From Blastocatellia bacterium (GTDB lineage Bacteria > Acidobacteriota > Blastocatellia > Pyrinomonadales > Pyrinomonadaceae), in contig JAEUQK010000021.1 in NCBI GenBank assembly GCA_016789265.1, positions 1 through 24,000 of the forward strand: a stretch of DNA of 24,000 nt, read 5' to 3'. Below the pieces are notes generated by a model. The model ran no database searches and had not been told where the DNA came from. It saw only the letters and a list, made by a program, of their open reading frames with translations. Positions 2,380 through 18,982 of this stretch are shown here, one piece after another. Each line of letters opens with the position of its first letter. The stretch's first letter is position 1. The translations under genes were made by a program, and so were the position numbers.

Positions 2380-2467
2380 TGATCTTTCCTCCTATTTGTC
2401 TGTTTTGGTTGTTTTTTAGTCGGTTCGCTTGACCGGAACCGGACGAGACTACCCTTTTGAGCGGCCG

Positions 2468-4288
2468 CTAGTCACGTGGGTCCCACTTCTCGGAAAACAG
2501 CCGCGGGATCGCGACGTCCTTCTTCTTCGCCTGGACCGCATCAAGGTAAGCCTTGTGAGCTTCATGATGCTTCTTCGCACAAAGCTCAAGCCGGACTTCG
2601 GCATCGATCAACGCGTAGTCGACCTTAAACTCTCTGGCAAGCTGTCTCACCTCGGTTTGTGACGAGTAACCGTTGTTGTAGCCGAGCGATCCCTTGTGAC
2701 CGTGGATCAGAAGGAACAGGACACGGAACTGAACATTTCGTTTTAACGTCTTGATCCGCTCGATCCCGCTTCGTCCTTCGGCAACATGGAAATCTCCACT
2801 CTCCCCGACCCATTCGGGCAGGAGAGTCTTGACGACCGCCTTCAGATTGCTGGAATCGCCCGACGAACTCATTCGCCAGAACTTCGCCAGAAGCTGCGGA
2901 AAGAATTCCACGCCCACGCTCGTAATGCCGAACCTCTTCTCGAACGCTTCGGCAGCTTCTTTGAACACGCGAACGCGAACAACTTCGGCAACCTTTGCAT
3001 TCCAGATCTCTTCACGACGAGCTCGTTTTGATTCCAGATCTGCCGCAGCTGCTGCTTCGTTTGATGAAGTATCGCTCGACAAACCGTTCATGGAGGGCTT
3101 GGACTCCTTCCAGTGGATCTTGCATCCGCTCGATCGAAGGCAGACCTGAAGGGTCTTGCCGTAGTTGTCGGGCTCAATGTCGATCGCACTAACCGAGTCG
3201 CCGCATGGCTTCCTGTCTTCCCCTCGCTTCGAACCGCCGATGACAACGGCGGATTGACTACCGAGATATGTCTCCCCGTCGGAATAAGACCAGCTGCGAA
3301 CGAGCGGGACTTGCAACGGATCGATTCCCGACCTCTCTGCGATCTCGACCCGTTTGACCTCTATATGACGAACCGACTTCTGCCTGAAGCAGGACGGATC
3401 AAGACAAGCATCTTTCCTGCCGATCTGATCGGACGCGAACAGGCTGACTGCCGCTCCGGTCCGATCCGGACATTTCACACACGCAAGTCCGTCATCGCGA
3501 AGGTTGGTCGCCTTTGTGCTGAAGGGTGCCTTCCCTAGCAGATGATGGATGTTCGTGTTTATCCATTCGACAAACGAGCGAAACGGGATGGTCTGCCCCT
3601 TTATCGGTTCGTACACGTAATCCGATCTCTCATACCGGCCTTGTTTCTTATACACCTCTCCGTAGATGACCTGCTGGATGTCCGGGGTATATTTCGCGAT
3701 CTCCAGGGCATAGACGAGCGGAAGGTGTTCGTCGTCGATATCCTTCTGGGCTTCCTCGATCAGCGAGTTCAGCTTCAGGCGGTTATGAACGTAACCCTCC
3801 GGCTTCCCGACCCTGAGTGCGAGTTCCCTGATATCGCAGCCGAGTTTCTCCTTTAGGAGCTGGTAGCCGTAGGCCTCGTCCATCGGGTGAACGTCCTCGC
3901 GGTGGAGATTCTCGTGTATCTGGATGTCGAGCACCTGTTCGACCGTTAGCTCGCGCACAAGGCAAGGAATGGTCTCCAGCGGTGTTAGCTTGCCGTGTTC
4001 GTCCTTGACGGCCCCTGCTGCCCGCCATCGCCGCTCGCCGCAGACGATCTCGAACCCATTCTCCTTCTGCCGGACAATAAGTGGTTCGAGAATACCCTGT
4101 GTCTTGATACTTGCCGCAAGCGATTCGATCGATTGCTCGCCGATCCTCCGCCGCGGATTTGTAGGTGACGGCTGAAGTTCTTTCCTAGGGATCAGTTTGT
4201 AGTCCGGCTGCTCTGCCTGCTTCTTTTTATCGTTGACGTTAGCCGATACCGTTTCGGTCACTTTCGTCAATACTGCTTTTTCTGACAT
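2468..4288 (-). CDS. ParB/Srx-domain (ParB-like nuclease/partition family) protein with a Cys-cluster middle domain
   Basis: ParB box LEPLIVRQKENGFEIVCGERRWRAAG. HTH-like segment CDIRELALRVGKPEGYVHNRLKL. Cys cluster CVKCPDRTG...CLDPSC. I prefer ATG 4288 (MSEKAVLTK...) over the track's GTG at 4441, because 4441 lies inside the upstream 61-aa gene in another frame. Confidence 0.8.
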   Translation of the reverse strand: MSEKAVLTKVTETVSANVNDKKKQAEQPDYKLIPRKELQPSPTNPRRRIGEQSIESLAASIKTQGILEPLIVRQKENGFEIVCGERRWRAAGAVKDEHGKLTPLETIPCLVRELTVEQVLDIQIHENLHREDVHPMDEAYGYQLLKEKLGCDIRELALRVGKPEGYVHNRLKLNSLIEEAQKDIDDEHLPLVYALEIAKYTPDIQQVIYGEVYKKQGRYERSDYVYEPIKGQTIPFRSFVEWINTNIHHLLGKAPFSTKATNLRDDGLACVKCPDRTGAAVSLFASDQIGRKDACLDPSCFRQKSVRHIEVKRVEIAERSGIDPLQVPLVRSWSYSDGETYLGSQSAVVIGGSKRGEDRKPCGDSVSAIDIEPDNYGKTLQVCLRSSGCKIHWKESKPSMNGLSSDTSSNEAAAAADLESKRARREEIWNAKVAEVVRVRVFKEAAEAFEKRFGITSVGVEFFPQLLAKFWRMSSSGDSSNLKAVVKTLLPEWVGESGDFHVAEGRSGIERIKTLKRNVQFRVLFLLIHGHKGSLGYNNGYSSQTEVRQLAREFKVDYALIDAEVRLELCAKKHHEAHKAYLDAVQAKKKDVAIPRLFSEKWDPRD

Positions 4289-4371
4289 TATTTTTGCACC
4301 CCGTTCCAACGGCTCGGTGCCGCCGGTAAAGTGCCTTAGTTTCTTGCCAACTCCTCTCTTATCGCCCGTCT

Positions 4372-4557
4372 TTATTGTTCCGGCAGGGTTTGTCCCTGAT
4401 CCGGTTTCGACTCGAACAGTTCGTGAACACAGTCCCGGCACATCGGTTCGTCCGAAACCGGTACGAACCCCGCGCCGCAGCCTTCACAGTCACGTAACCG
4501 CTCGACGATAAAGTCGTGATCAATACCTGTGCTCTCTAAACTAGAAAGGGATATCAT
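4372..4557 (-). CDS. Small zinc-ribbon protein (61 aa)
   Basis: Two CxxC pairs (CEGC ... CRDC) spaced 13 aa apart. AGGAGG lies ~10 nt upstream of ATG 4557. It overlaps the upstream gene by 17 nt, which suggests operon coupling. Confidence 0.55.
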   Translation of the reverse strand: MISLSSLESTGIDHDFIVERLRDCEGCGAGFVPVSDEPMCRDCVHELFESKPDQGQTLPEQ

Positions 4558-4786
4558 CCTTGACGACCTCCTTTGTTACGGTCTCATCGATCCCGTTTGC
4601 TTCATCTCGCTCTCCGTTGGATTTCGGGTCGCGGATATTGAAGATAAGACCGGGATGGAAATCGAGCTTTAGGTTCAGACTTCCATCACGGCAGACATAC
4701 GCGGCACCGGCCATTCGCCAGAATGTCTGGCGGTTCGGTTCGACGCCGCGTTCTACGATCAGATATACGATCTTGTAATCCGACAT
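4541..4786 (-). CDS. 81-aa protein with an SSB-type C-terminal tail (…KDDIPF); possible minimal ssDNA-binding protein or SSB-tail mimic
   Basis: I verified the translation of the last codons: gag gtc gtc aag gat gat atc cct ttc tag = EVVKDDIPF*. An acidic linker (SNGERDEANGIDETVTKEVVKDD) precedes the tail. GAGGAGGAG sits just upstream of ATG 4786. Confidence 0.6.
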   Translation of the reverse strand: MSDYKIVYLIVERGVEPNRQTFWRMAGAAYVCRDGSLNLKLDFHPGLIFNIRDPKSNGERDEANGIDETVTKEVVKDDIPF

Positions 4787-4799
4787 GATCTCCTCCTCT

Positions 4800-5105
4800 C
4801 TAGGCTGCCTTTTTTAACGGAATGGGCGGCTCGGGCATCCCTTCCGGGCTTTCTCCGTTGCCGCTTGCGCCGTTCGGTCTAAGCTGAACCTGCTTTTCGA
4901 CATAACAGTAGGCACATTTGCCTGCTATCGAGAGATAGCAGGACTTACACACGGACTTTTCGCAGACCCGGCATCTTGTCCAGTTGCATTCCGGCGTCTC
5001 GATCGACGTTATGCAGACAAGGCGACCGAGCGACATAAAGTTTGTCTCGATCGCTCCTTTTAGCTCCCTGCCGCACCTGTGGCAGGAGCCAGTACGTGTT
5101 GACAT
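4800..5105 (-). CDS. Cys-rich zinc-finger protein (101 aa)
   Basis: Several CxxC pairs: CHRCGRE, CRVCEKSVCKSC, CAYC. I place the start at ATG 5105 (MSTRTGSCHRC...), because AAGGAGG lies 7 nt upstream. The track's 5186 start adds 27 lysine/asparagine-rich codons with no RBS. Confidence 0.55.
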   Translation of the reverse strand: MSTRTGSCHRCGRELKGAIETNFMSLGRLVCITSIETPECNWTRCRVCEKSVCKSCYLSIAGKCAYCYVEKQVQLRPNGASGNGESPEGMPEPPIPLKKAA

Positions 5106-5293
5106 ATCTAAGTTCCTCCTTATGTTTTTCTTTTTGTTTTTGTTCTCTGCGTTGCTTGCAGATCCCCCAGGGCACGAAGGGAACAAAGGTGCCTTGGGAG
5201 AACTGCAAACAAACGCGACAGGAGGAATAGGCGAAGAAAAAGCTAAATTAGCGAAAGTTAGCTGAGGAAGAAAGAGCCAAAAGAAGAATGGAA

Positions 5294-6502
5294 TTAAGCA
5301 GGCGGTAGTGTGACGGCGCTAAACGGCCTGGAAATTTTGCCGTCGATCATGAGCTTCAGATAGATGTGGTAGTTCGGCAGGTTTGTAAAATCCGAGAGTC
5401 TGAACTCGGGTGCAAACTCGGGCGCAAGAAACTCCGCGTCGTTGGCCCCGATCCGAAAGACGATGATGGTTCCGGCATTGCCAAGGATCGCATCCCTTAT
5501 TGTCGGTTCAAGCTGGGTCAGGTATTGGTGGGCAAGGACAAGCGAAAGACGGTATTTGCGGAGTTCGGAGAGCATAAAGATCAGGCTCTGCGTCGTGAAG
5601 TTATGGAACTCATCAAGGTAAAGCGTGAAATCCTTGCGCTCGGATTCCGGAATGTTTGCCCGACTCAGTGCTGCCAGATCGAAACGCGAGATGAGAAGCG
5701 AGCCAAGCAAATTGGAAGTATCTTCCCCGATGCTACCCTTTGCCAGATTGACAAGCAGTATCTTGCCCCCGTCCATTACGGAACGGAGATTCAACGGCTT
5801 TTCCGGGTTTGTAAGGATCTTCTGCAAAAGCGGGTGGGAAAGAAACGCTCCTACCTTGTTTTGTATCGGCGCGATCGCTTCTATGCGGAATCGTTCGGGG
5901 TACTTTTCATATTCATACAGCCAGAACTCTCTGACCTGTTTATTGCGGACGGATGCGACCACGATCCTCCGAAACGCTTTCTCATTGAACAATCTCAGGA
6001 TGTCCGACAGATTCGCGTCAGCATAATCGAGAAGGGCGATCAGGCAGTTGCGTAAGATATACTCCAGTCTCGGTCCCCAGGAATCGCTCCAAAGATGTTT
6101 GAAGACCTGGATCAGTCCCGAACACGCAAGTGCTCTTTTTGAGTGAGGGATCTGCGCGATCGGATTGAACCCATATGGCTGTGCGGGATCGGCGGCGTCA
6201 AAATCGATCAGATCGGGAATGCGGCCTTCAGGGATTTGTGATTTGACCCGCTTCAACAGATCGCCGTGCGGGTCAAGCAATGCGAAGCCGAGTCCAGACC
6301 GCATATCGTCGAGCATCATCGACTCCATCAGGGAAGATTTGCCGGTCCCGGTTTTCCCAAGCAGATACATATGCGCCCGGCGATCTGACTGCCTGATCCC
6401 AAAGGTCATCATCTCATTTCGGAAATTAGCATTTGCAAAAAGAGTGATGCTTTCATCACGGGATGCCGGATAATTCTGGAATTTTGCAAGGAGTTGCGTC
6501 AT
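5294..6502 (-). CDS. Soluble TraD/VirD4-like (type IV coupling protein / HerA-FtsK superfamily) P-loop ATPase
   Basis: Walker A LLGKTGTGKSS. Walker B-like FTLYLDEFHNF. AHQ motif LVLAHQYLTQL. There is no N-terminal TM segment. Its start overlaps the stop of the upstream wHTH gene (ATGA at 6499-6502). Confidence 0.7.
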   Translation of the reverse strand: MTQLLAKFQNYPASRDESITLFANANFRNEMMTFGIRQSDRRAHMYLLGKTGTGKSSLMESMMLDDMRSGLGFALLDPHGDLLKRVKSQIPEGRIPDLIDFDAADPAQPYGFNPIAQIPHSKRALACSGLIQVFKHLWSDSWGPRLEYILRNCLIALLDYADANLSDILRLFNEKAFRRIVVASVRNKQVREFWLYEYEKYPERFRIEAIAPIQNKVGAFLSHPLLQKILTNPEKPLNLRSVMDGGKILLVNLAKGSIGEDTSNLLGSLLISRFDLAALSRANIPESERKDFTLYLDEFHNFTTQSLIFMLSELRKYRLSLVLAHQYLTQLEPTIRDAILGNAGTIIVFRIGANDAEFLAPEFAPEFRLSDFTNLPNYHIYLKLMIDGKISRPFSAVTLPPA

Positions 6503-6948
6503 GGCGGTGAATACAATGGTCTTGCTCCGGCCAACCCTCTGCTATCACCACTAACCTGAAACCCCTTCCATTTCAAAATTGAGATCGTCACGTACCTCCC
6601 CGTTCGCTGAACCGATATATATCCTTTTTTCCTTAGCCTATTGAGGTGCAACTGTATGGTACGCAGCGAATAACCGGTGTCCTCGTGCATCGACAATTGA
6701 GTACGGCGAACTACACCGTTTTTGCGGTTTGAATACATTAACAAATACAGGTAAGTCCAAATGGCGGGGCCCATCGCCTGGCGGTGTTTGCTGTTAGGAT
6801 CAGCCACAAGGCCGCGCCAAACCGGTGACCACCAACTTGGCGGCTTTCGATACGCCTGATTCTCGGTTCGGCTGCCGTAGAGTGACGCCGACCGATTTCG
6901 TAGCAGGGAACCGGCGGTTCGAAATGAAGAATTGTTTGGTGAAGGCAT
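6499..6948 (-). CDS. Winged-helix DNA-binding protein (first gene of the backbone operon; possible Rep/regulator)
   Basis: The C-terminal 80 aa, WTYLYLLMYSNRKNGVVRRTQLSMHEDTGYSLRTIQLHLNRLRKKGYISVQRTGRYVTISI, fit the wHTH pattern (helix-turn-helix plus beta wing). It is translationally coupled to the ATPase. Confidence 0.55.
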   Translation of the reverse strand: MPSPNNSSFRTAGSLLRNRSASLYGSRTENQAYRKPPSWWSPVWRGLVADPNSKHRQAMGPAIWTYLYLLMYSNRKNGVVRRTQLSMHEDTGYSLRTIQLHLNRLRKKGYISVQRTGRYVTISILKWKGFQVSGDSRGLAGARPLYSPP

Positions 6949-7342: not shown

Positions 7343-7984
7343 ATGAATACTAAAACCGAGATAGAAGAGGGAAGAGTAAACAACGAACGACAATTCCATG
7401 TCATATATTTGACCGGCGCCCCAGCCTCGGGAAAGAGTACGCTGGTCGAACTGTTAGAAGGAAACTTTCAGCCCATGAAGACCTTTGTATACAGTCGCGT
7501 TTTGGCAGACTATTTAAGGGAGAAATCTGTTCGTCAATATTCACAAGATCACCTTCGCGAGAAGTCAGCGCAACTCATAACTCCCGACGATATAGAAATC
7601 GTGGATACCCGGCTTCTTGACTTCGTTACGGAGAATGCGAAAAAGGCTCATATTGTTATTGACTCGCATGCGGTAACCAAGGAAACGTACGGCTTCAGAG
7701 TGACGCCATTTTCGCTAGAACAGTTGAGGAAACTGAGTCCAACTCTAATTTTTGTCCTCTATACCGCTCCTTCCGTGATTTTGAACAGGATAAAGAATAA
7801 CAGTCAAGGCAGGCCGACCGTCTCGGAGTTTGAAGCCGGGTTTCATTCCGAGCTTCAAGCAACCGTTGCTTTAATTTACGGTATTCAGATAGGAATACCG
7901 GTATATTTCTTGGACAGTGACCGACCGTCTGATGATCTCGTAAGCGAAGTCGTAAAGCGAATTGAACGGGCTGCTGGAAAATAA
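7343..7984 (+). CDS. P-loop nucleotide kinase resembling archaeal-type adenylate kinase (AdkA-like)
   Basis: Walker A LTGAPASGKST. The order of blocks is as I recall it in archaeal AdkA: P-loop, then IVIDSHAVTKETYGFRVTPF (compare VDTHxxVxTPxGYLPGLP), then PTLIFVLYTAPSVILNRIKN..QGRP (compare LIxVxExxxxEILxRRxxDxxRxRD). GAGGA lies 2 nt (TA) upstream of the ATG. Confidence 0.5.
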   Translation: MNTKTEIEEGRVNNERQFHVIYLTGAPASGKSTLVELLEGNFQPMKTFVYSRVLADYLREKSVRQYSQDHLREKSAQLITPDDIEIVDTRLLDFVTENAKKAHIVIDSHAVTKETYGFRVTPFSLEQLRKLSPTLIFVLYTAPSVILNRIKNNSQGRPTVSEFEAGFHSELQATVALIYGIQIGIPVYFLDSDRPSDDLVSEVVKRIERAAGK

Positions 7985-8005: not shown

Positions 8006-8650
8006 TTATGCGTGGTCATTTACCCGGCTTTTCGTTGTACGGCACACAGGGACCTCTTGGGCATTCTTTAGTATTACAAAATACGGTTCAATCAGTTCGG
8101 CAAGGATGGCTACATCGTACACTGACTCACTTTCCATCTCGATGTCTCTTCGCTCAACTATTGCCGTTACTTGAGATGCCGCAACCGGTCGTCCGGTTCT
8201 CAGGTTACTAAGCTGCTGAAAACCAATCGTGAATTTGCGTTGTAATGGAACTATTGGGGTTGCGCTGTAGCAAACGAGAGCGAAATGATGACGCTTCGGG
8301 GTTTCCGGGTCGAACCTGCTCGTTACAAGAGAGTGTCGGGGAATTGCAAACCTCCTTCCATCTATGGCTTCAGCCTCAGTCCACATGACAACAGCGGGAG
8401 GACTTACGTCCTTTTGTTTTGGCTCCGTCTTAATCGGGCTGAAGATCACTTGCGGGCGAGCAGTATGCTGCATTAGTTCAAGGATCGAAGGACCGATTGC
8501 GTTCCCGATTCCCCACATGAATATACCGCCGTTTGCCAACCTTTCTTTTTCTTTTCTATTGAGAATGTGTTCGACCGGCTCGGCAGCCTCTCCACCGAAT
8601 CTCGTCCAACAGAACAGGCGGGGCAGGCTTTCGACTGTTTGATTTTCCAT
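8006..8650 (-). CDS. Hypothetical protein, unrecognised family (paralogue 1 of 2 in this window)
   Basis: The 214-aa ORF has no recognisable motif. It aligns by eye with the 205-aa product of 10629-11246: HILNRKEKERLANGGIFMWGIGNAIGP vs DIIKRKTQEIEQTGYGLWGYGGSTCHP; IDGRRFAIP vs IDGLHWVAIP; HFALV vs RYALV; LAELIEPYFVILKN vs IAEIVEPYAVFVRN. Confidence 0.6.
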   Translation of the reverse strand: MENQTVESLPRLFCWTRFGGEAAEPVEHILNRKEKERLANGGIFMWGIGNAIGPSILELMQHTARPQVIFSPIKTEPKQKDVSPPAVVMWTEAEAIDGRRFAIPRHSLVTSRFDPETPKRHHFALVCYSATPIVPLQRKFTIGFQQLSNLRTGRPVAASQVTAIVERRDIEMESESVYDVAILAELIEPYFVILKNAQEVPVCRTTKSRVNDHA

Positions 8651-8686
8651 TTTTCTCAGTATGCATTAATATGCACTAGTATGCAA
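8644..8686. promoter_or_regulatory. Candidate back-to-back divergent promoters with a triple ATGCA repeat (candidate operator)
   Basis: Only 30 bp separate ATG 8650 (-) from ATG 8681 (+). On the plus strand, TTTCCA (8644-8649), a 17-bp spacer and TAATAT (8667-8672) end 8 nt before the ATG, implying a leaderless or near-leaderless XRE mRNA. On the minus strand, TTGCAT (8686-8681), 17 bp and CATACT end 7 nt before ATG 8650. The motif TATGCA occurs three times (8660-8665, 8670-8675, 8680-8685). Confidence 0.35.
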
Positions 8687-9016
8687 GAAGGCTCGTTTGC
8701 AGACCGACTTAAGGAGTTCATGGAGGCTAACCGCCTAACCCAGGAGGCCATTGCAAATGTAGCAAAGGTTAGCCAGTCATCTGTGTCGAGGGCTTTAAGG
8801 CGAAATTCAGTGCGGCATGGCAAGGCGGGCGCCAAACTATTCATTTATATGCAACAACACTTAAGCGCAGGCTTTGTAAGTCAGGGTAAAGGTAAGGTTG
8901 TTGAGGCCTTCGAGTCGATTTGGGATGGCTCGGAGGAACATGCGACGGCCATTGCTAGGATAATCAAGGCTTCTGATGGTTTACGGCCAGCCGAACATTC
9001 GAAGGAGGGCGACTAA
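8681..9016 (+). CDS. XRE-family helix-turn-helix transcriptional regulator
   Basis: From ATG 8681: MQEGSFADRLKEFMEANRLTQEAIANVAKVSQSSVSRALRR, a classic XRE/cI-type HTH. The track's earlier start at 8567 would overlap the divergent gene. Its stop overlaps the next start (TAATG at 9014-9018). Confidence 0.7.
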   Translation: MQEGSFADRLKEFMEANRLTQEAIANVAKVSQSSVSRALRRNSVRHGKAGAKLFIYMQQHLSAGFVSQGKGKVVEAFESIWDGSEEHATAIARIIKASDGLRPAEHSKEGD

Positions 9017-10026
9017 TGCTTCACGATGACGCCGCGACGTTTCGAAAACGACTAAGCGATCTAGGACTTAGTGACTCGGTTATTGATGCAGCGTGGCCGG
9101 ATTGGTGGAGCGACGACGCAGAGGCATCACCCTCAGCCCGTGCCGAACTGCGCTACTCCCTAGCTAGAAAGCTCGGATTGGAACCTCATTCCCTCCTCGA
9201 AGATAAGGAGATTCCGCGATTTATTTGGAAGGAGCCAGCTCAGTTTAAACATCTGTCCGGAGAAACTGATGGTGAGAAATGGGCACTGACCTCCTTCGGT
9301 ACTGCATTAGGCAAGATACTCCTGCGGGGATCTTCCACGCCGGCATTTCAAGGTACGAGGACTGCATTAGAATTCCGGGCAGCGATTCTGGGAAATCAGA
9401 CATATGTGCGATTCGTTGACCTTCTTTCGCTTTGTTGGTCCATCGGAATACCGACAGTGCATTTGCGAGTTTTTCCTCTTCCGCGGAAGCGGATGGCCGC
9501 GATGAGCGTGAGTGTGGGAACGAGCCATGCGATTTTACTCGGCAAGGACGCGCTCTATCCACCACAGATCGCCTTCTATCTAGCACATGAACTGGCCCAC
9601 ATATCCCTCAATCACTTGAAGGACAACGAAGTTCTGGTAGATCTGGAGCAAGATGTCCCCTCCGACTTACATGAGGAAATGGACTCGGAGGAAAGAGCTG
9701 CCGACGCATTCGCGCTAGAGCTTTTAACAGGAGTCCCGGACCCCGAAGTCGTCCCGATAGGACCGGGCAGTGGATCGCGCAGCCTCGCGAAAGCAGTACT
9801 GGACGCCGCCCCTGATCTTCATATTGAACCTGGCACGTTAGCCTTATGCTACGGCTTTTCCACCGGCGCTTGGGCGACCGCGATGGGTGCTTTGCCCTAT
9901 ATCTACGGAGCACCACGAGAAGTTTGGCGAGAGGTCAACAGTATCGCGCTAGAGCAACTCTCCCTATCTGCTCTTCCACTTGACACGACCCTCTATCTAC
10001 GAAAAGTCCTTGGCGAGGTGGGTTAG
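9016..10026 (+). CDS. ImmA/IrrE-family (COG2856) zinc metallopeptidase
   Basis: HEXXH motif in FYLAHELAHISLNH. The downstream third ligand/helix EERAADAFALELL is typical of ImmA/IrrE. AAGGAGGG lies 7 nt upstream. It is coupled to the XRE gene. Confidence 0.8.
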   Translation: MLHDDAATFRKRLSDLGLSDSVIDAAWPDWWSDDAEASPSARAELRYSLARKLGLEPHSLLEDKEIPRFIWKEPAQFKHLSGETDGEKWALTSFGTALGKILLRGSSTPAFQGTRTALEFRAAILGNQTYVRFVDLLSLCWSIGIPTVHLRVFPLPRKRMAAMSVSVGTSHAILLGKDALYPPQIAFYLAHELAHISLNHLKDNEVLVDLEQDVPSDLHEEMDSEERAADAFALELLTGVPDPEVVPIGPGSGSRSLAKAVLDAAPDLHIEPGTLALCYGFSTGAWATAMGALPYIYGAPREVWREVNSIALEQLSLSALPLDTTLYLRKVLGEVG

Positions 10027-10027
10027 A

Positions 10028-10672
10028 ATGCAAGTGCTCGTAGATAACGACATTTTGGTGAAAGGCGCCTGTTATGGCTTGTTCGAGGAGCTTTTTGGCC
10101 AGTCGTCGCAACACAATGAAGAACTGGGAGTCCTTGGGGCAGCAAAGTTTGTTGTTGCGAAAGCGATTCAGAGTATCCGGCTCCAGGGCGATCCTGAAAG
10201 AGGAATCGAAAGACTTAAGATTTTCCTTGAAAGATGCACCTGCGTGGAACCGACCGACGAGGAACAGAATCTGGCTGCCGAATTTGAGCTTCAGGCACAA
10301 CAAGCAGGTGTTGCACTGGATTCGGGTGAAAGTCAGTTATGTGCGGTGTTAATTGTGCGAGCACTTCCCTTGTTACATACAGGCGATAAACGAGCGATTC
10401 AGGCGTTGGAGGAATTGCTAACGTGCCATCAAAAGTTACAATCACTGTGCGGGAAAGTCCTATGTTTAGAGCAATTGGTCCTAAGCTGCACTTCAAAAGA
10501 AAATCTCAAGTTCATTCGCGCGGCTATCTGCTCAGAGCCCGATGTAGACAAAGCACTTTCTATCTCGTTCAGCTGTAAGAGCAAAGACACAACCTTTGAG
10601 ATAGTGGCGGAGGGGCTAAACAGTTACATCAACTACCTGCGTCAACAGGCTCCGCAGGTCCTTGCGAGCTAG
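10028..10672 (+). CDS. PIN-like domain protein (putative nuclease), third gene of the XRE-ImmA operon
   Basis: Starts at ATG 10028, 1 nt after the ImmA stop, with GAGGTGGG upstream. The N-terminus MQVLVDNDILVKG fits PIN strand 1 with an acidic residue. Later acidic positions also fit PIN topology: EEQNLAAEFE, LDSGESQLCAVLI and LLHTGDKRAIQAL. The assignment is from motif spacing only. Confidence 0.45.
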   Translation: MQVLVDNDILVKGACYGLFEELFGQSSQHNEELGVLGAAKFVVAKAIQSIRLQGDPERGIERLKIFLERCTCVEPTDEEQNLAAEFELQAQQAGVALDSGESQLCAVLIVRALPLLHTGDKRAIQALEELLTCHQKLQSLCGKVLCLEQLVLSCTSKENLKFIRAAICSEPDVDKALSISFSCKSKDTTFEIVAEGLNSYINYLRQQAPQVLAS

Positions 10673-11246
10673 GTATGCGATTACGGACGAATACAGCATA
10701 CGGCTCAACGATCTCGGCAATCAGCCCTATTTGGACGGTTCTCGCAGGGCCACGATGATCGTCATTGTCGGAAATCGTTAGACAGGCCTTGTCTACGCGA
10801 CCGCTGATGTATTTGCCTCCAGGTACCCCTAGACTGTTGCCCAACGCTACTGCTGTTCTATCGAGTGGCAATTTGAATTCTTCCCTGCGGAGGTCTTTGA
10901 TCACAAGAGCATAACGAGAACCACGTACATTGATAACTTTCGGTATGGCTACCCAATGCAAACCGTCGATGGAAAGTTCGTCCGCTCTTATGGGCTCGGC
11001 AAAGTGTTTGGACTCCATAGGCTCCATCGCTAAATATATTCGCCCGCCCTGTCGAGCATAGCCTTTCGCGAAGGGCTGGACCATTGTCTGAGGGTGGCAG
11101 GTACTTCCTCCGTAACCCCACAATCCGTACCCCGTTTGTTCAATCTCCTGTGTCTTACGTTTTATGATGTCCTCTAGGGATTCCTGAGCGTGAGTGCCGA
11201 CCTTCATGTACAGTACGCCTTGGCCAGGTGTAATGATGTTGCCCAT
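10629..11246 (-). CDS. Hypothetical protein, unrecognised family (paralogue 2), adjacent to the DUF43 transferase
   Basis: The 205-aa ORF has its ATG (11246-11244) directly next to the TAA stop of the upstream gene (11249-11247). It is similar to the 8006-8650 product (see that entry). Its 3' end overlaps the convergent PIN-like gene by 44 nt. Confidence 0.6.
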   Translation of the reverse strand: MGNIITPGQGVLYMKVGTHAQESLEDIIKRKTQEIEQTGYGLWGYGGSTCHPQTMVQPFAKGYARQGGRIYLAMEPMESKHFAEPIRADELSIDGLHWVAIPKVINVRGSRYALVIKDLRREEFKLPLDRTAVALGNSLGVPGGKYISGRVDKACLTISDNDDHRGPARTVQIGLIAEIVEPYAVFVRNRIPSSQGPAEPVDAGS

Positions 11247-12077
11247 TTATATAGACTCCAGTAATTCTAATTTGTATTCATCTTCGTGCGCCTTGCCGTA
11301 ATCCAAGCGTTTAATCTCGCGGACGTATCGCACCCGTGGAGGGGTCTCTGCCCCGTAGAAATTCTTCAATCGTTCCGGATCGGTGATTGCTTCGCTCGTC
11401 GACTTCGGCTTTGCGCCAGGTAGCGATTTGAAGAGAAGATTACACGACCGAAGATCAGGTGCGTCGTCCAAATGGTAGGAGTGTAGGCGCGACGCCATCT
11501 TCTGCACGAAAAAACCTCTACAAATCGCAAACTCCTGGACATTAGCGAGAACTTGTTTCGCCCACTCCCGCTCGGGGTCATCGGCAATGACGACCAGCCC
11601 TTCGCCATCATACGATATAGCTTCCATACCACGTTCCATGAAGACCTTGACGCTTTCTCCGGCATTGCTTGCCCCCCATGGCGGGTTAGTGTAAAAGCAG
11701 TCAAAATCGAAGGGTCCGGGAAACGGCTCTAGGCAGTTGTATAGGACCGCACTGAGATTGTCGAGCCGTTCGCTGTCCGCAAAGCGTTCCACCGCCGAGC
11801 AAATCCGCTCGTCGAAATCGAAGAGGGTGATTTGAGATGGCCCACGGTTTACGATCCCACGGGCATACAAGTATGCGACACAAACACTAATCGCGTCGCC
11901 GTCGCCGATAAAGGCGAGGCGATTTCCGTTTGCCCAGCGAGCCACCAGCTCACTCTGAAGAAGCATGTCGCCTGCCTTCATGTAAATCTGGTCGAACTCG
12001 CGCAGAGGCCGGGGCCGATTTTGCACGACATCGGAGATTGCGTTTATTGCTGCTCTAAGATCAATGTCTTCCGGCAT
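11247..12077 (-). CDS. DUF43 / BpsA-family (branched-chain polyamine synthase-like) SAM- or dcSAM-dependent transferase; start uncertain
   Basis: Family blocks: NRLAFIGDGDAISVCVAY (compare GDDDLTS), ITLFDFDERI (compare VxDIDER) and FDCFYTNPPWG (compare TDPPYT; also the N/DPPY/W motif IV of amino-methyltransferases). I give the conservative core from ATG 12077 (MPEDIDLRAAINA...). The ORF stays open to ATG 12125 and TTG 12260. No SD precedes any of these. TATACT (12094-12089) lies 11 nt upstream of ATG 12077. Confidence 0.6.
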   Translation of the reverse strand: MPEDIDLRAAINAISDVVQNRPRPLREFDQIYMKAGDMLLQSELVARWANGNRLAFIGDGDAISVCVAYLYARGIVNRGPSQITLFDFDERICSAVERFADSERLDNLSAVLYNCLEPFPGPFDFDCFYTNPPWGASNAGESVKVFMERGMEAISYDGEGLVVIADDPEREWAKQVLANVQEFAICRGFFVQKMASRLHSYHLDDAPDLRSCNLLFKSLPGAKPKSTSEAITDPERLKNFYGAETPPRVRYVREIKRLDYGKAHEDEYKLELLESI

Positions 12078-12457
12078 TGCGACTGTCGAGTATACAATTA
12101 TTGTCCGCCAACGAAAAATCTCCATCTGCGCGGCCGTAAGAATTGAAAAGCCTCCTGATAGCCCGACAGAGAATGTCCCCGGCCTCAGTCCAGCCTTTTT
12201 CCCGATCGCTCGTAGATCCCTTCTTGGTTTCCCCACAGAGGTTGCGGATGGCGGGGTCAAATGGGCGGCGAAATGGACGCCGGCCAGATAGATGCGGACC
12301 GACGGCGCGAGAGGGCACTCCGGCGTACCTACTATAAAGATCTCTATCGTATTCGACCTGGTATGCTCAGATGATTCTGGAACTGACTTAAGAGTTTGTT
12401 CAGCCTCTAAGGGAACTCACTTGATAGTCATCACGGAAAATAGATCTAACTCCTCTA

Positions 12458-13627
12458 CTAAACATGACCCAAACTCGCGGTTAGGGCAGGCCTTCCCGAA
12501 AAAAAATCGTCAACTCGGGCTGTCAATTCGGACTTTTCCACCTCAGTTGCAAAGCTCGCGGAGATACTTTGGCTTGTAATCCTTCCCATACCTTCGACTG
12601 TGATAATCCCGGACTTAATCAAGTGTAAGAATTCATTGGATAGTGTAGTCGGCCCCAATAACACAGGGTCGTCAGTGTTGATTGTCACGCACAATCCCTT
12701 TTCCAAAAATTCCTTGACCGGATGATCGACGAAGGACCGTGCTACGCTCAGAATGATATTGCTAGTAGGACAGATCTCCATCGGGATCCGCAGTTCAGCA
12801 AGCGTGGCAAGAAGCTCCGGATCGTTGACCGCTCCAATCCCGTGTCCAATTCGGTCGACCTTGAGCTTGTCCAACGCTTCCCAAACTGATTTTGGATTGC
12901 CTGTCTCCCCCGAATGGACCGTTAGCGGGATACCCGCTGACTTTACGATCTCGCAAAAGTCTTGAAATAAATCGTTTGAATACCGATCTTCGTTTCCAGT
13001 GAGGTCAAGGCCCACAACAATATCTCGATTCGTAAGCGTGGACTCCGCAAGCTTCTGAAACCTGCGGCGGCGATCCGCAAGATCTCCCCACCGTTCGATG
13101 ACGCCACTGCGCCCAACACTGAGGATAATCTTGGCAACAGTCTTCGGAAAATCACGCCGGGCCACCTTTACCCCGGTTCTTATTGCATCGATGTATTCTT
13201 CGAGAGAAAGTGGAAGCAACGGGTTAAATTCTCTACTGTTCGGAGCAACACGAAATTCGACATAAATCACACCATCACGAGCCGCATCGGCGATTCCCCA
13301 ATATACGGCGTTATGAATGCCTCTCGGATCAGAAAATATCCCCTTGAAACCTGCCCAAATTCTTTTCCTTAGAAAATGTTCGTACCCATTTGGAACAGGT
13401 TTCGATAAGACGGAAGCTCTAGCTATTCTCTTAGGATCATTACCGAAACCGTTAAGTGTAATATTAAGCCTATTTGCGATATAGACGAGTACTTCTGGAC
13501 GAATTGATCCCACCAAATGCCGATGAAGATCAACTTTGGGTATTTCCGTTAGGGTACTCAGCGAAACACCGTCGAACGGCAATTCATGGGTTCCAATCGA
13601 TGGGTAGAAATCAAGCGGATGTGACAT
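12458..13627 (-). CDS. Adenosine/adenine-nucleotide deaminase (ADA family, PF00962-type)
   Basis: All canonical ADA metal and catalytic motifs are present: VDLHRHLVGS (HxH), LTVHSGE (HxGE), DRIGHG and VTINTDDP. The 389-aa ORF starts 5 nt after the stop of the upstream membrane-protein gene. Confidence 0.85.
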   Translation of the reverse strand: MSHPLDFYPSIGTHELPFDGVSLSTLTEIPKVDLHRHLVGSIRPEVLVYIANRLNITLNGFGNDPKRIARASVLSKPVPNGYEHFLRKRIWAGFKGIFSDPRGIHNAVYWGIADAARDGVIYVEFRVAPNSREFNPLLPLSLEEYIDAIRTGVKVARRDFPKTVAKIILSVGRSGVIERWGDLADRRRRFQKLAESTLTNRDIVVGLDLTGNEDRYSNDLFQDFCEIVKSAGIPLTVHSGETGNPKSVWEALDKLKVDRIGHGIGAVNDPELLATLAELRIPMEICPTSNIILSVARSFVDHPVKEFLEKGLCVTINTDDPVLLGPTTLSNEFLHLIKSGIITVEGMGRITSQSISASFATEVEKSELTARVDDFFSGRPALTASLGHV

Positions 13628-13632
13628 AGGAA

Positions 13633-14682
13633 TTACCGATTCTCTTCTGCCTTAAGGCCCGAAGCAAAGCTGTCACCAATCGCGTCGATCAATTCTGACG
13701 ACTTGCCTGAATATATTAGAGCATCACAGACTGGCTGAAAAATATCAAACCAAAATTGAACTAGGGACTGTTGAAAATATCCTCGACGCTCGGTTGCGTG
13801 AACCGTGAGCACCCCATAGACTTCACTTATTTTTTCTTTTGGAAAGTCGGCCACGGCTGGTACACAAATCATTGAAGCATAGTCTTTCTTTTGCCCGGTT
13901 CTCATCTCCTCGAACTGAAGATCCTCACCACCATTCTCGCAGACTATTGGCTCACGTTTTGCCCAACATTTTCCCGCCGCTCCTTCGTTTAGATCAAATT
14001 TTGGAGTCTTCGGTTCGCCCTCGTTCGGGAATGCTCTATACCTCTTCTCGAGTATGTCAGGTCCATTCTCTTGTGAGGTAACCGCGTAGAAACTTACGCC
14101 CATCTTGTCGTTATTCTCCCCGTCGGCATCCTTTGGTTTCTTGAAGATGTCCTCTTTTAGGATCTGCGAAACGCGACCTAGCGCCTGCTTCACCTTTTCC
14201 CTTCGAATATTGTCCGCCTGATTCAAAGCAGTTCTAATACTGTCGATATTCACATTTTTGCTCTCGATCAAACGTCTTAATTCGACGGTGAGACTATAGT
14301 TAGCCCTGTAACGTTCCCGAATGAAATCCGCCACGACATCGGGCATCGTACGACGCAGATGATTGTATCGATCCTGTTTCTCCAGTTCCGCTTTGAGTTT
14401 ATCGTTCTCGGCCGTCAACTCACCTCTGAGAATGTCCATGGCGCTCTTTGACACTCTATTACTAATCGCACGAAGCAAGGCAACAATGATTATGCTCAGC
14501 AATACTAAAAGCAACACCTGAACCCAGCCGGGTGCGGGCTTTACGGCTTCGTGTCCAAATGCAACAAGTAGTGCAATTAGTAAATGGGATGCCACACTTA
14601 GGAGGTTATCAAGTTTCATACAATTGTCACTCGACTGATTCTTCGAAGCTAAACGAAGCGATGAATCCTTAGCTATTCTCAC
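13633..14682 (-). CDS. Membrane protein: 2 TM helices, coiled coil and a C-terminal GAF-like domain
   Basis: TM segments LLSVASHLLIALLVAFG and WVQVLLLVLLSIIIVALL. Heptad-like RGELTAENDKLKAELEKQDR. The C-terminal ~150 aa fit a GAF pattern: NEGAAGKCWAKREPIVCEN ... YASMICVPAV ... VYGVLTVHATERRGYF. The track start at 14682 is GTG; the alternative ATG at 14619 (MKLDNLL...) is equally possible. Confidence 0.5.
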   Translation of the reverse strand: MRIAKDSSLRLASKNQSSDNCMKLDNLLSVASHLLIALLVAFGHEAVKPAPGWVQVLLLVLLSIIIVALLRAISNRVSKSAMDILRGELTAENDKLKAELEKQDRYNHLRRTMPDVVADFIRERYRANYSLTVELRRLIESKNVNIDSIRTALNQADNIRREKVKQALGRVSQILKEDIFKKPKDADGENNDKMGVSFYAVTSQENGPDILEKRYRAFPNEGEPKTPKFDLNEGAAGKCWAKREPIVCENGGEDLQFEEMRTGQKKDYASMICVPAVADFPKEKISEVYGVLTVHATERRGYFQQSLVQFWFDIFQPVCDALIYSGKSSELIDAIGDSFASGLKAEENR

Positions 14683-15252: not shown

Positions 15253-17091
15253 TCACCCAGCTTTCAATGGCGCCAGTTCGCCTGCGTCAATGATGAGCGG
15301 GCCCTCGATGAAATCCTGTCCCAACCCCTCACTGGGTGTTATCGCGGGCGTATCCTGACCAGCATTCGGGTCGCCATATTCGGGATTATGTTTCCAGTGA
15401 TCACGTTGCGGTGACTTGTCTATTCCAATCGGGTAGATCGTCAGCTTATCACCCTCGATCTTGAGCCTGAGAAAATGTCGATAACTGTCGAGCCGAAGAG
15501 CGCTGAACGCACCGTTGGAGTGATCTCCCCAGAACCAAGAGGCGGTGGTCAGGTAAAGTCCCCATAAGAATCCGCCGACAAATCCCAGGACTATCATTCC
15601 AGCAAGAAATCCAAGAAAATTAAGCATTTCGCCAGCTGTATAGATTGATTGGATTCCGAAAAAATTAAGCAGCGTCGAAACCATCGCAGTTCCGAATAAG
15701 ACCATAGCAACATGAACCAAGCCATGAAGGCCTCCAATGAAGACCCTTCGCCGCCTTGAGCTTATTTCGGCCGATAATATAAATACGATCGGAAGCAAAA
15801 AAAAGATAATTAGGAACACGGGCGACGATGCAAGAATTCGAACCTGGTTCCAGTAAAGATTTAAGAACGTATCATTCTCGCCCACGGCAGCGTATCCGCT
15901 CCACGCCAACATCGCTAAGGCACAGATGCAATAGAGGCCCGCGAGTAGAAAGCAGAACTCCCAGTTCCGCCCAGGAAATCGGATGTTCCCGAGGGCAAGT
16001 CTTCTGCTTGCGTGTTTAGGTGGATAAAAAGCCCTTGTAGCACCGTCAGTCCCTATCCCTACCTCGAGCGTATCGAACTCGCCTTTGATGCCCGGCCACT
16101 TTGCGCTTATTGTGTCGTTTAGATGATGCGTTGGGTGGAGAAATGCACCCCCACCGCCGGCAGTGATGAAATTCGTTCCTGTTTCCTTGCTGACATAGCG
16201 ACTGTAGTGATGAAGGTCACCTGAGATAACCAGCGGGACCTTTGCATTTGGGCACTCATCGTGAAGGATTTTAGCGATGTAATGTAGAGCCCTGTAGTAC
16301 TCTTCCTGTCCTTTTTTGTCGCCCGCAATATCGGCCTTGAGCCAGGTTGGAACCGATGCGCAGAGAATGATCTTTGCACCAGGCCGCATCTTCTTCGCCA
16401 CAGCGGCAAAGTAATCCGCCTGAGGCGCGTCAATATCCTCACCCAACTGCGAATCGAATCCCCAGATCCACCAGTTCTGTCCTAAGTGAATTGCAAAGTA
16501 GCTTCGCCGTTGCGACGCGATCCAGCTTCCCAAACTAGTAGCGCGCCCGCGACAAAAGTTAGCCAGGAAGAGAGTGAGGCCATCATACCAATCATGATTG
16601 CCGGGTATGAGATAGAGTTTTGGATGATCTCCGTTTCTTTCGTAAGGAAATGCAGCCCGATAAGGAAGCTTCATCCGCACTTCATATTCGTCCCGGCTGG
16701 CGTCCGGGTAAACTTGGTCACCGCCCATTATCAGACAATCGGCTCGCGGCAAAGTAATATCGCCGACGGGTAATTGCTTTTGGCCGATCATATAAGCGAT
16801 CGCATACGTTGAATCGAAACCGTCGCCGAGATCCGCGACGTAATCCACCCAGATCTCTTGCTTGCCCCCGCATAAACCGTCTTCGCCACGACAGCAATCT
16901 TCGATCAGCGTATCGTGATTGATCGGCGAATCGAGAGCAGCGTGAACTAGTCTCCGGTCCGCGTACTGTCCAAACAGTGTTGAATCAATTACCTTTTTGG
17001 CGGTTTTTGCCAACACGAGTGGGCTAAACCAGTGAACCATTCCGCGGTACTCACTCGAATCATTCAGGTCTGGGGGGTATTTTCTTTTCAT
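15253..17091 (-). CDS. Calcineurin-like metallophosphoesterase with a C-terminal multi-TM domain
   Basis: MPE motifs appear in order: VADLGDGFDS, IMGGDQVYP, IPGNHDWYDG, SGDLHHY, GGGGAFLHPTH. At least four hydrophobic helices follow (e.g. FLLAGLYCICALAMLAW, VFLIIFFLLPIVFILSA, LNFLGFLAGMIVLGFVGGFLWGLYL), then a soluble tail. Confidence 0.8.
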   Translation of the reverse strand: MKRKYPPDLNDSSEYRGMVHWFSPLVLAKTAKKVIDSTLFGQYADRRLVHAALDSPINHDTLIEDCCRGEDGLCGGKQEIWVDYVADLGDGFDSTYAIAYMIGQKQLPVGDITLPRADCLIMGGDQVYPDASRDEYEVRMKLPYRAAFPYERNGDHPKLYLIPGNHDWYDGLTLFLANFCRGRATSLGSWIASQRRSYFAIHLGQNWWIWGFDSQLGEDIDAPQADYFAAVAKKMRPGAKIILCASVPTWLKADIAGDKKGQEEYYRALHYIAKILHDECPNAKVPLVISGDLHHYSRYVSKETGTNFITAGGGGAFLHPTHHLNDTISAKWPGIKGEFDTLEVGIGTDGATRAFYPPKHASRRLALGNIRFPGRNWEFCFLLAGLYCICALAMLAWSGYAAVGENDTFLNLYWNQVRILASSPVFLIIFFLLPIVFILSAEISSRRRRVFIGGLHGLVHVAMVLFGTAMVSTLLNFFGIQSIYTAGEMLNFLGFLAGMIVLGFVGGFLWGLYLTTASWFWGDHSNGAFSALRLDSYRHFLRLKIEGDKLTIYPIGIDKSPQRDHWKHNPEYGDPNAGQDTPAITPSEGLGQDFIEGPLIIDAGELAPLKAG

Positions 17092-17133
17092 AACATATTA
17101 TTCAGATCAGGGTATTAAGAACCGACCTCAAAG

Positions 17134-18360
17134 TTAGTGGCCGGAGCGGGTGAATCGCAGAATCTCGATATTCCCCGTTCTGGTTACGCAGATGCGATCT
17201 TTCTGCCGCTCCTCCGGGAGGCCTGTCGATACTGTGGCCCGCGCGGAGGACGTCGCATTGGAAACGCGGTTCAAGCGCACCGTGAAGTCTCGAAAGAACT
17301 TTCCGATGAACAGCCGGCTAGGATCAACATAGTTGACAGGATCGTTCGCACGGTACGTGTACAAGTTCAAGGTCTCCCGTTGGACTGTCGCCCGACAAAT
17401 TGACTCCAGGTTTTGTTGAGATGCTGTTGCTTCAGTTTCCACAGGAACGTGGGCAAGAGCGCCGCTGTGCGAATTCGAGACCGCTTTCGCCGTCCTTCTC
17501 GTAACCGGTGTAGCCTTTCCGAACCTCGTCATCGCCGGACGTGTAACCGATGCCGCTGACCCTTGCCGAAGTAACTATCTCATCGCCAAATGCCCCGTAA
17601 TCTTTCCTATCCTTCACCGCACCAAGCTGATCCGTCACAAGCCGCGTGCTGCCAAGATGATCGGTTGTCAAATAGCTTGTTTGCGGACTCTCAGACGTTT
17701 GAGTCGAGTACTCAGCCACAAGTTGTCCGCTTCCATTGTAAATGAAAATGGTGGTCTCTGTGCCCGCGATCTTCTTTACTCTTTTTCCGTCCCCGTCATA
17801 GCGGTATTCGCCGATCGTCGTGTCCTGATCGTTCTGTACCTCGATCTGATGGTTCTCGGCGTCGTATATGAAATCCTTTCCTTCGGCATCGCCCGTAACG
17901 TTACCCGCCGCGTCATATTGCCAGCCGCTGCTTGTGAAGCGGTTTGTCGAGGTCGAGATCGTGGGGTTGCAGATCGCCTCCGTGCAGCTTCCGAGAGTGG
18001 TGGTGTTCGAAGCATCGTAACGACGGTTGCCGTAACGGTCCATCGTGAATGTCTGCTTCCAGGTCTGGCCGCTGTTGATCGTCTCAGTCGCGGAGAGAAG
18101 GCGATTCAGATCATCATAGGTATAGGTTTGTGTAGCCGTAAAGCCGTTTGTCGTCCCGACGTTCGGAACCGTGATCTTTTGTTCCCTCAAACTCCCGTTG
18201 TTCTTTGTATTGTTTCCGTAACCTAGCTCAAGCTTCAGAAGATTCTGGCTGTTCGGACCAAGCCCGAGCCCGATCTGTGTGACCTGTCCGCGGGTGTTGT
18301 ATAGGGATGTTTCCCAGCGTCCGTTGCCAAGCCGCATCGCTGTCACGGCCCGTCTGGCAC
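17134..18360 (-). pseudogene. Orphan RHS C-terminal cassette (YD repeats, core end and a 58-aa tip), with no N-terminus and an interrupted frame
   Basis: ORF 17432-18346 aligns with the last ~330 aa of the main RHS core. MRLGNGRWE matches LRLGNGLWE, QTWKQTFTMDRYGNR matches QTWKQGFGYDRYGNR, DQDTTIGEYRYDGDGKRVKK matches DQDTTIGHYYYDGEGRRVKK, and GYEKDGESGLEFAQ matches GYQKDEETGLDFAE. It then hits TGA at 17432-17434. The core-end motif LNLYTYRANDPVNYVDPSRL is in another frame (ORF 17134-17532). No start codon or RBS lies at the 5' homology boundary (~18360). Confidence 0.7.
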
Positions 18361-18390
18361 TGGTTTTGTTCGTAGGCTTTCCGATTCTGA

Positions 18391-18963
18391 TTAGGAACAG
18401 CCAGCAAATTGAGGTGAAACAGTGACGACCAATTTGTTACTGTTGAGAGCTAGCTCCACCCAAGCGTAGAAGTCAGGTGTATTTGCGAGCTTGCCAAGCC
18501 CGTCGATTAGAGTTTTCTCCAATCGAGGGATGTCGTACCTTAGATCCACCTTATGTGTTCCACTGAGGACGGACCTCGACAAATTTCCGAGCTTCGCCGC
18601 GTGTAAGTTACTGAATCCCGTAAACGTGACCTTTTCAATTTCATAAACTGGAGGATTCTTTTTATACTTTGTAATTAAGGTTAAATCGTACCTATCAGTA
18701 CCCACTAGCTTTGAAATCCGATAATTAACGTTATCGAAAAGTCCCGACATTAAGAGATGGCGTTCAAAGCAAGCGATCTCCGCAGAATGGTTGATCCTAT
18801 CCCTGGAAATCGTCCGATTAGCAAGCTTACGCAAATATCGGGTGTCGGCATCAAGTAAGATATAGACGTTCGCGATCTTATATTCAGACTTCGGAACCTG
18901 ATCCGGAACTTGCCCGAATAACCATATATTGAGCATAATAACTATCAATACTGCCTTTATCAT
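18391..18963 (-). CDS. Candidate RHS immunity protein with an N-terminal signal peptide or anchor
   Basis: It lies immediately downstream of the rhs stop (TGA 18985-18983). AGGAGG lies 5 nt upstream of ATG 18963 (the track's 18969 start is GTG). The N-terminus MIKAVLIVIMLNIWLFGQ is hydrophobic. The gene is clearly AT-rich: the 60-nt line starting at 18661 has 20 G+C. The function is inferred from position only. Confidence 0.45.
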   Translation of the reverse strand: MIKAVLIVIMLNIWLFGQVPDQVPKSEYKIANVYILLDADTRYLRKLANRTISRDRINHSAEIACFERHLLMSGLFDNVNYRISKLVGTDRYDLTLITKYKKNPPVYEIEKVTFTGFSNLHAAKLGNLSRSVLSGTHKVDLRYDIPRLEKTLIDGLGKLANTPDFYAWVELALNSNKLVVTVSPQFAGCS

Positions 18964-18982
18964 GTACACCTCCTACTACACT

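Follow-up and report, generated by a model that had tools for sequence, protein, structure and literature searches.

What does a relative of the polyamine synthase BpsA do when its gene is joined, without a single intervening base, to that of a protein that belongs to no named family? This question is raised by a stretch of 24,000 nucleotides (nt) from a Blastocatellia bacterium of the Acidobacteriota (GenBank assembly GCA_016789265.1, contig JAEUQK010000021.1, positions 1 to 24,000), hereafter the window. On its minus strand, two adjoining genes, called A and B below, encode a predicted transferase of 276 amino acids (aa) and a protein of 205 aa. Comparison with related loci shows that A, B, C, D and F, together with a regulator, form a fixed and mobile set of five to seven genes that recurs across phyla. 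We have high confidence that this cassette is one functional conflict module. In the window, it comprises the following features.

11247-12077, minus strand: A, predicted BpsA_C-family (DUF43) transferase, 276 aa (Pfam PF01861, E 1.7e-16)
10629-11246, minus strand: B, unnamed family, 205 aa, translationally coupled to A
10028-10672, plus strand: C, PIN-domain (VapC-like) predicted nuclease, 214 aa (Foldseek on the model)
9016-10026, plus strand: D, ImmA/IrrE (M78)/Lit-like zinc metallopeptidase, 336 aa (Peptidase_M78, E 1.9e-5)
8681-9016, plus strand: E, Xre-type helix-turn-helix (HTH) regulator, 111 aa (Pfam HTH_31, E 1.5e-5)
8660-8685, between the divergent genes F and E: probable operator, three TATGCA/TGCATA hexamers
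8006-8650, minus strand: F, distant paralogue of B, 214 aa (profile-profile comparison with the B family)
7343-7984, plus strand: G, optional P-loop nucleotide-kinase-like gene, 213 aa (Pfam AAA_17, E 9e-11)

A Conserved Gene Pair Within a Larger Cassette

In the minus-strand sequence (...GAG TCT ATA TAA ATG GGC...), the TAA of A (11249-11247) touches the ATG of B (11246-11244) with zero bases between them, as the initial annotation of this DNA had stated. The conservation of this arrangement was followed in 86 related loci, which were found through B; 80 loci were fetched from bacteria sampled at one genome per species, and every window protein was searched against all these loci to obtain presence counts. 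A lies directly upstream of B in 86/86 loci, so the DUF43 homologue and the 205-aa family co-occur throughout. The distance from the stop of A to the start of B is between -20 and +11 nt in 84 of the 86 loci, and because the spacing is so tight the adjacency of the two genes is not a matter of chance. The commonest junction is a 4-nt ATGA overlap, found in 39 of the 86 loci. In one metagenome-assembled genome of the Solirubrobacterales (locus L086, 9167-10570), A and B are joined in frame into a single open reading frame (ORF) of 467 aa. This fusion may be real, or it may reflect an indel error of a long-read assembly.

The start of A had initially been left ambiguous between 12077, 12125 and 12260. 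It is settled by the homologues (n = 83; median length 277 aa), which begin with MxxxEIDLR; the window counterpart, MPEDIDL, begins at ATG 12077 and yields the 276-aa protein. The starts at 12125 and 12260 were rejected, since the extension that they would add is unconserved in the other loci. Neither the 61 codons upstream of ATG 12077 nor the 380-nt spacer that precedes this codon shows conservation in any other locus, at the nucleotide or at the protein level, and no Rfam match for a riboswitch or another RNA element was found upstream of A. For B, the first methionine is invariant in the family alignment, and ATG 11246 is therefore its true start. Initiation at Met14 was considered because most homologues are about 192 aa long; it was ruled out by the invariant Met1 and by the location of the extra length of the 205-aa protein, which is a C-terminal tail.

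The A-B pair, taken as the unit in the initial annotation, is indeed recurrent, but it is only half of a cassette that uses both strands and reaches position 8006. C is present in 86/86 related loci, and D and F in every related locus of sufficient length. An E-like ORF precedes D in 49 of 81 loci. G adjoins the cassette in 16 of about 83 loci, either upstream of A or beyond F, and stands between B and F in locus L088. In the window, there is a 1-nt overlap between E and D and a 1-nt gap between D and C, and the convergent genes B and C share 44 nt at their 3' ends. The order can vary: on a Pseudomonas koreensis plasmid it is A, B, G, F, E, D, C, and in 21 loci, mostly alphaproteobacterial, F precedes D-C in the same orientation and the Xre gene is not found there.

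B is present in 164 of 185,579 bacterial species, each represented by one genome. The loci come from Acidobacteriota, Alpha-, Beta- and Gammaproteobacteria, Actinomycetota, Chloroflexota and Dormibacterota, with at least seven phyla counted in all. When 72,556 plasmids were searched by tblastn with A as the seed, the five full-length A genes recovered lay in the same five records that hold B.

Protein A and Its Likeness to BpsA

The DUF43/BpsA-like identity initially proposed for A was borne out. The protein matches PF01861 (BpsA_C, formerly DUF43) at 60.7 bits for a cutoff of 27, and 29 of 29 tested family members match it as well. In searches against PDB profiles, BpsA (5xnc/2qm3) is found at E ~1e-9 and METTL5 at E 0.002. 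The likeness to BpsA (PDB 5XNC, 6J27) comprises the Rossmann core, the FDxDER strand, the D/N-P-P motif after strand 4 and aspartates of the cofactor loop, and possibly the acidic stretch at the C terminus. The alignment of A with BpsA is confined to the C-terminal catalytic domain and begins at about residue 131 of the 371-residue 5xnc chain; the N-terminal domain of BpsA (about 110 residues) is missing, in line with a median length of 277 aa as compared with about 350 aa in BpsA. The alignment to the enzyme of Thermococcus kodakarensis (Tk-BpsA) ends at chain residue 266, and A has a conserved acidic tail, YGKAHxDEYxLELLE.

In BpsA, Asp159 and Asp160 of the GDDD loop hold the aminopropyl group of decarboxylated S-adenosylmethionine (dcSAM) and are essential, the polyamine site is made of Asp225, Glu259, Tyr290 and Tyr316, and an acidic C-terminal cluster serves as aminopropyl carrier (2026 review, PMC12979288). 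Four motifs are invariant in the A family: FIGDGD, FDFDER, FYTNPPWG and YHLDD. Aligned with BpsA, they show that GDDD corresponds to an invariant GDGD, the essential Asp159 being replaced by Gly, and that Asp225 of the polyamine site (TDPPE) corresponds to the invariant Asn131 of TNPPW. The initial annotation had described a change from TDPPYT to TNPPWG. The loss of the BpsA signature and the gain of NPPW both stand; the starting motif does not, as the equivalent sequence in characterised enzymes is TDPPE (T. kodakarensis) or TDPVEG (Thermus thermophilus). Across 29 diverse A-family members, N131-P-P-W134 does not vary, and a diverged variant of A described below, A', carries NPPY.

Methyltransferases whose targets are exocyclic amino or amide nitrogens carry NPPW as the signature of their motif IV. 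It is one form of the (N/D)PP(Y/F/W) motif of METTL5, RsmC/RsmD (MTS), HemK/PrmC and the gamma-class N6-adenine DNA methyltransferases; of these, METTL5 and MTS return weak but repeated matches. The Pfam MTS family (PF05175) is the second-best family for A, matching 7 of 29 members with a best E of 1.4e-4 and meeting no curated threshold. METTL5 and HemK2 act with TRMT112, and A likewise appears to need a small separate partner, although B is unrelated to TRMT112. It should, however, be noted that A matches the amino-methyltransferases below their family thresholds, and that the aspartates of its cofactor loop are unusual for proteins that bind S-adenosylmethionine (SAM). From its sequence, A is a predicted transferase of the BpsA_C fold in which the residues specific to BpsA are swapped for an (N/D)PP(Y/F/W) signature.

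A could in principle be an ordinary branched-chain polyamine synthase, that is, a BpsA orthologue carried by a mobile element. The above-threshold match to BpsA_C and the RefSeq label of A homologues, 'bis-aminopropyl spermidine synthase family protein', both speak for this identity, which is nevertheless very improbable given the missing N-terminal domain and the replacement of Asp159 and Asp225. The company that A keeps also differs from that of BpsA: it occurs in mesophilic soil bacteria and on mobile elements, and always together with B, C, D and F; no polyamine gene was found among the 25 Pfam families that are most frequent in 110 flanking proteins.

Proteins B and F

B had been assigned to no known family, and this description holds: no Pfam, NCBIfam, PHROG or PADLOC family matches it. 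The family is nevertheless large, with 2293 clusters at 90% identity and 451 at 50% identity. Almost all of its members stand alone, with a length of 175-200 aa, and the longer ones, inspected for domain fusions, are without any Pfam domain. Three invariant motifs, WGYGGxTCHPxxMVQPF, GSRYAL and VDKAC, are kept in the most divergent members. An AlphaFold model of B was obtained with good scores (pLDDT 83.7, pTM 0.81). Foldseek searches of this model against PDB and BFVD returned nothing below E 0.1. YTH domains appear repeatedly among the best, though weak, PDB matches (probability at most 0.21, TM at most 0.31), and this resemblance of the model is to be taken as a weak lead only.

B and F are paralogues. 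Comparison of the two families with hhalign gives a probability of 97.7% and an E of 2.5e-12 over 166 columns, and BLASTP gives an E of 1e-4. Profile searches with B and F against PDB sequences returned no match, and the two proteins have neither a Pfam family nor a structural neighbour. Both share a glycine-rich strand-loop-helix, WGYGG in B and WGIGN in F, which from its sequence may be of a type used for phosphate binding. F is without the Cys-His insert of B and has an invariant GASQVT motif of its own. Whereas B is tied to the transferase, F is tied to the protease-nuclease operon.

The Nuclease, the Peptidase and the Regulator

The AlphaFold model of C (pLDDT 94.2) matches many structures of VapC toxins in Foldseek with a probability of 1.00 and TM scores (target) of 0.65-0.73. 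In the family alignment, D6, D8, D98, E101, D120, E148 and D174 are invariant. C is thus predicted by its model to be a nuclease of the PIN/VapC fold with its acidic residues conserved. By analogy with VapBC, a small antitoxin gene would be expected upstream. Instead, the gene found there is that of the 336-aa metallopeptidase D, and C further differs from VapC in a C-terminal extension of about 70 residues with four conserved cysteines and in its place within a set of five to seven genes.

D has an intact HELAH motif and matches capP of PADLOC (E 7e-7, the HExxH region only) and Lit of NCBIfam (E 3.5e-5); RefSeq names a homologue 'ImmA/IrrE family metallo-endopeptidase'. Two full-length PHROG families to which no function is assigned also match, phrog_18577 to D (E 5e-46) and phrog_15597 to C (E 2.6e-18). 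The true start of E is ATG 8681 (MQEGSF...), the gene being called at 109-111 aa in loci L001 and L003.

The TATGCA/TGCATA hexamers occupy the 30-nt gap between F and E with an exact spacing of 10 nt, the third overlapping the ATG of E. This array is unique in the window, and none was expected from 100 shuffles. It is found at the same position in loci of Acidobacteriota, Rhizobium, Chromatiales and other Alphaproteobacteria. No inverted repeats occur between E and F, the element being an array of direct repeats. A weaker two-unit copy lies inside E (8838-8853). A scan of the window for promoters and terminators gave sites no more frequent than chance. By its sequence and position, the TGCATA array is the probable operator of E.

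An Xre gene that overlaps the gene of an M78 HExxH peptidase, next to a repeated operator and a divergent promoter, is also the arrangement of CapH/CapP (in the CBASS defence systems), of ImmR/ImmA (ICEBs1) and of DdrO/IrrE. Two differences should be noted: D, at 336 aa, is larger and has a family of its own, phrog_18577, and in the 21 loci mentioned above F replaces the Xre gene. As read from their sequences, D and E are predicted to be an ImmA/IrrE-type peptidase and an Xre-type repressor paired beside a conserved operator.

The Adenosine Deaminase Upstream of A

Another partner for A had been put forward in the initial annotation. An adenosine deaminase encoded upstream was read as an enzyme that could act on the by-product of A, methylthioadenosine (MTA) or S-adenosylhomocysteine (SAH), or on the product itself; A would then be an aminopropyl or methyl transferase and B an accessory protein. 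The deaminase is genuine: it has 389 aa, belongs to the adenosine-deaminase family (E 2.7e-67) and is encoded on the same strand as A. Its distance from A, given earlier as 200-380 nt, can be fixed at 380 nt, from its end at 12458 to ATG 12077. However, the deaminase and the GAF gene next to it (12458-14682, minus strand) are present in 0/86 related loci, and the spacer is unconserved. The deaminase begins 5 nt after the gene of a protein of 349 aa, in which membrane helices at the N terminus are accompanied by a coiled coil and a weak GAF domain, and because only 5 nt separate them the two genes form a pair of their own. Its best PADLOC match is the CRISPR-associated CARF-ADA (E 5.5e-42), with a weak match to RdrB of RADAR. 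The deaminase was consequently rejected as a partner of A, and of all the readings considered here the one built on it has the least to recommend it. The GAF protein and the deaminase may constitute a separate sensor-plus-deaminase defence module.

Genomic Context and Mobility

The flanks of the cassette vary from locus to locus and are rich in integrases, resolvases and transposases. Defence genes are found among them, namely type I and type IV restriction genes, TIR-pAgo, dGTPase, PbeA, MkoC and AbiE. The slot upstream of A, taken by the deaminase pair in the window, elsewhere holds a dGTPase, a kinase-like gene or nothing. In the Acidobacteriota locus L001 (5934-7172), the gene in this slot encodes a defence-type dGTPase (PADLOC E 2e-109) and shares 8 nt with the start of A. 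Phage origin was considered and set aside: a tblastn search of 50,697 phage genomes with B, C and D returned nothing, and B was found on 2 of 2.9 million viral contigs. Given the PHROG matches, the peptidase-PIN pair D-C may exist alone in distant prophages.

In the window itself, the region 1330-6948 (minus strand) encodes a 657-aa ParB-N/HTH protein, a 402-aa fragment of a TraG/TrwB-like coupling protein and a small HTH protein, which suggests that the window is part of an integrative or conjugative element. On the other side, positions 15253-23992 (minus strand) encode a 612-aa calcineurin-like phosphoesterase and, after it, an Rhs-repeat protein of 1669 aa with small ORFs and another Rhs fragment downstream; this Rhs region adjoining the cassette looks like a polymorphic-toxin locus.

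A second, diverged pair, A'-B', is found after HipB-HipA in loci of the Sphingomonadales type, with the 4-nt overlap kept (L066, 1630-8816; L079; L089; L095, 6849-14308). It is followed by an OLD-family ATPase-TOPRIM protein and a UvrD-like helicase (Gabija-like, that is, resembling GajA/GajB), by a PNP_UDP_1 protein and an 854-aa protein, or by unknown genes. A metagenome scan for this subfamily gave 4 loci only. Since A'-B' sits beside HipBA and variable effectors, A-B appears as a portable two-gene unit that accompanies toxins and nucleases.

The vicinity of toxins raises the possibility that A-B is an enzymatic antitoxin comparable to those of type VII, which would modify an amide or amino nitrogen of a protein, C or F, and thereby keep the toxin inert until A-B fails. 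HemK/PrmC, which has NPPY, modifies the amide nitrogen of a glutamine in a protein, and the NPPW motif of A is common to the protein-glutamine methyltransferases of the HemK/MTS type. C has invariant glutamines beside its catalytic acidic residues (GESQ, EQ), the A'-B' pair also lies next to a toxin, HipA, and A and B are better conserved (median identities of 68% and 59%, respectively) than C, D and F (41-48%). On the other hand, the A-B and C operons are convergent and not co-transcribed, and C is already under the control of a dedicated HTH/ImmA switch. On balance, such an antitoxin is improbable.

The nucleotide enzymes that recur beside the cassette point in another direction. G, which matches the archaeal-type adenylate kinase of NCBIfam (E 1.5e-10) and adjoins the cassette in 16 loci, the dGTPase of L001, the PNP_UDP_1 protein and the deaminase of the window could be taken to mean that A-B make or alter a nucleotide or a polyamine-like metabolite, be it a signal, a toxic analogue or a depleted pool, which F would sense in order to control D and C. 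The glycine-rich loop of B and F, of a kind that may bind phosphate, and the aspartates in the cofactor loop of A, as in users of dcSAM, would agree with this route. Such neighbours, however, vary and are missing from most loci, several of them are stand-alone defence genes, and the cassette contains no cyclase, synthetase or known sensor domain. Moreover, to our knowledge, the NPPW enzymes characterised so far act on macromolecules. A small-molecule substrate is accordingly an unlikely outcome, with about the same weight as the enzymatic antitoxin.

A Modification-Plus-Nuclease Module?

In many restriction-modification systems, the transferase operon and the controller-nuclease operon are convergent, with overlapping 3' ends. 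The cassette resembles those of the controller type: a modifier operon faces, in convergent orientation, an operon for an HTH regulator and then a nuclease, and the whole is mobile, sporadic and found in defence islands. It differs from them in its components, since the nuclease C has a PIN/VapC fold, the transferase belongs to BpsA_C, and a metallopeptidase and two novel paralogues are added; DNA, moreover, is only a putative target of the cassette. Taken as a whole, the cassette looks like an undescribed conflict module that combines modification with a nuclease or toxin and uses unprecedented components. Within the literature covered, a search for DUF43/BpsA relatives in defence found no description of it, though it may have been described elsewhere under another name. 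B, C and F are called hypothetical in all sources, and A is named after BpsA by homology only.

The explanation that we favour, tentatively and at somewhat less than even chances, is that A-B is the obligate modifier half of a mobile modification-plus-nuclease conflict module, serving anti-phage defence or addiction and controlled by an inducible switch. A, with its partner B, would transfer a methyl or aminopropyl-type group from SAM or dcSAM to a conserved macromolecule of the host, most likely an RNA or DNA base. B would present the substrate or activate A, or could be a second enzyme acting through its invariant Cys-His. Acting at the TGCATA operator, E would repress F as well as the E-D-C operon. 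Upon a signal of stress or infection, D would cleave E, in the way that ImmA, IrrE and CapP act on their repressors. F and C would then be made, and C would cut targets that do not carry the mark, F serving C as B serves A. This four-step scheme is drawn from the likeness of the layout to controller-regulated restriction-modification and to the CapH/CapP, ImmR/ImmA and DdrO/IrrE switches.

Several observations weigh against this explanation. The adjacency to defence genes is circumstantial. PADLOC 2.0 has no system model for the cassette; in PADLOC-DB 2.0, B, C and F have no match, and A matches only the methyltransferase core of mad2 (E 4e-8). For PIN/VapC toxins, the usual substrate is RNA, and neutralisation normally comes from a bound antitoxin and not from modification of the target. 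The TGCATA array is not found upstream of A. The high conservation of A and B is unlike that of sequence-specific restriction-modification methyltransferases, although it fits a universal substrate. Finally, A keeps two of the three aspartates of the BpsA loop (G58-D59-G60-D61) as well as the acidic C-terminal tail (HEDEY..E..E), so that this protein may use dcSAM and aminopropyl chemistry, and a plain methyltransferase is only a candidate identity.

A more specific version of the modification-plus-nuclease scheme can be imagined, in which A and B install an unusual mark on nucleic acid, possibly aminopropyl instead of methyl, while F reads whether the mark is present or absent and directs the PIN nuclease C once it has been released by the protease. 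This version is speculative, and we give it only a slim chance of being correct.

Implications for the BpsA Family and for Conflict Systems

If the modification-plus-nuclease explanation is correct, the cassette would be a candidate conflict system present in about 0.1% of bacterial species and in many phyla. It is abundant in soil metagenomes, with more than 2000 protein clusters at 90% identity. B and F represent two unnamed families with a confidently predicted fold that has no structural neighbour. Should the mark-reading version hold, it would define a new class of self/non-self discrimination, in which the B/F proteins would be a new family of writer-adaptors and readers of modified bases. 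More generally, the association of a PIN nuclease with a modifying enzyme and a CapP-like switch would bear on how the logic of restriction-modification can be built with PIN nucleases or applied to RNA. For the BpsA/DUF43 family, the favoured explanation would provide a first role outside polyamine synthesis, and the annotation of several thousand database entries, for which 'bis-aminopropyl spermidine synthase family' would be misleading, would be corrected.

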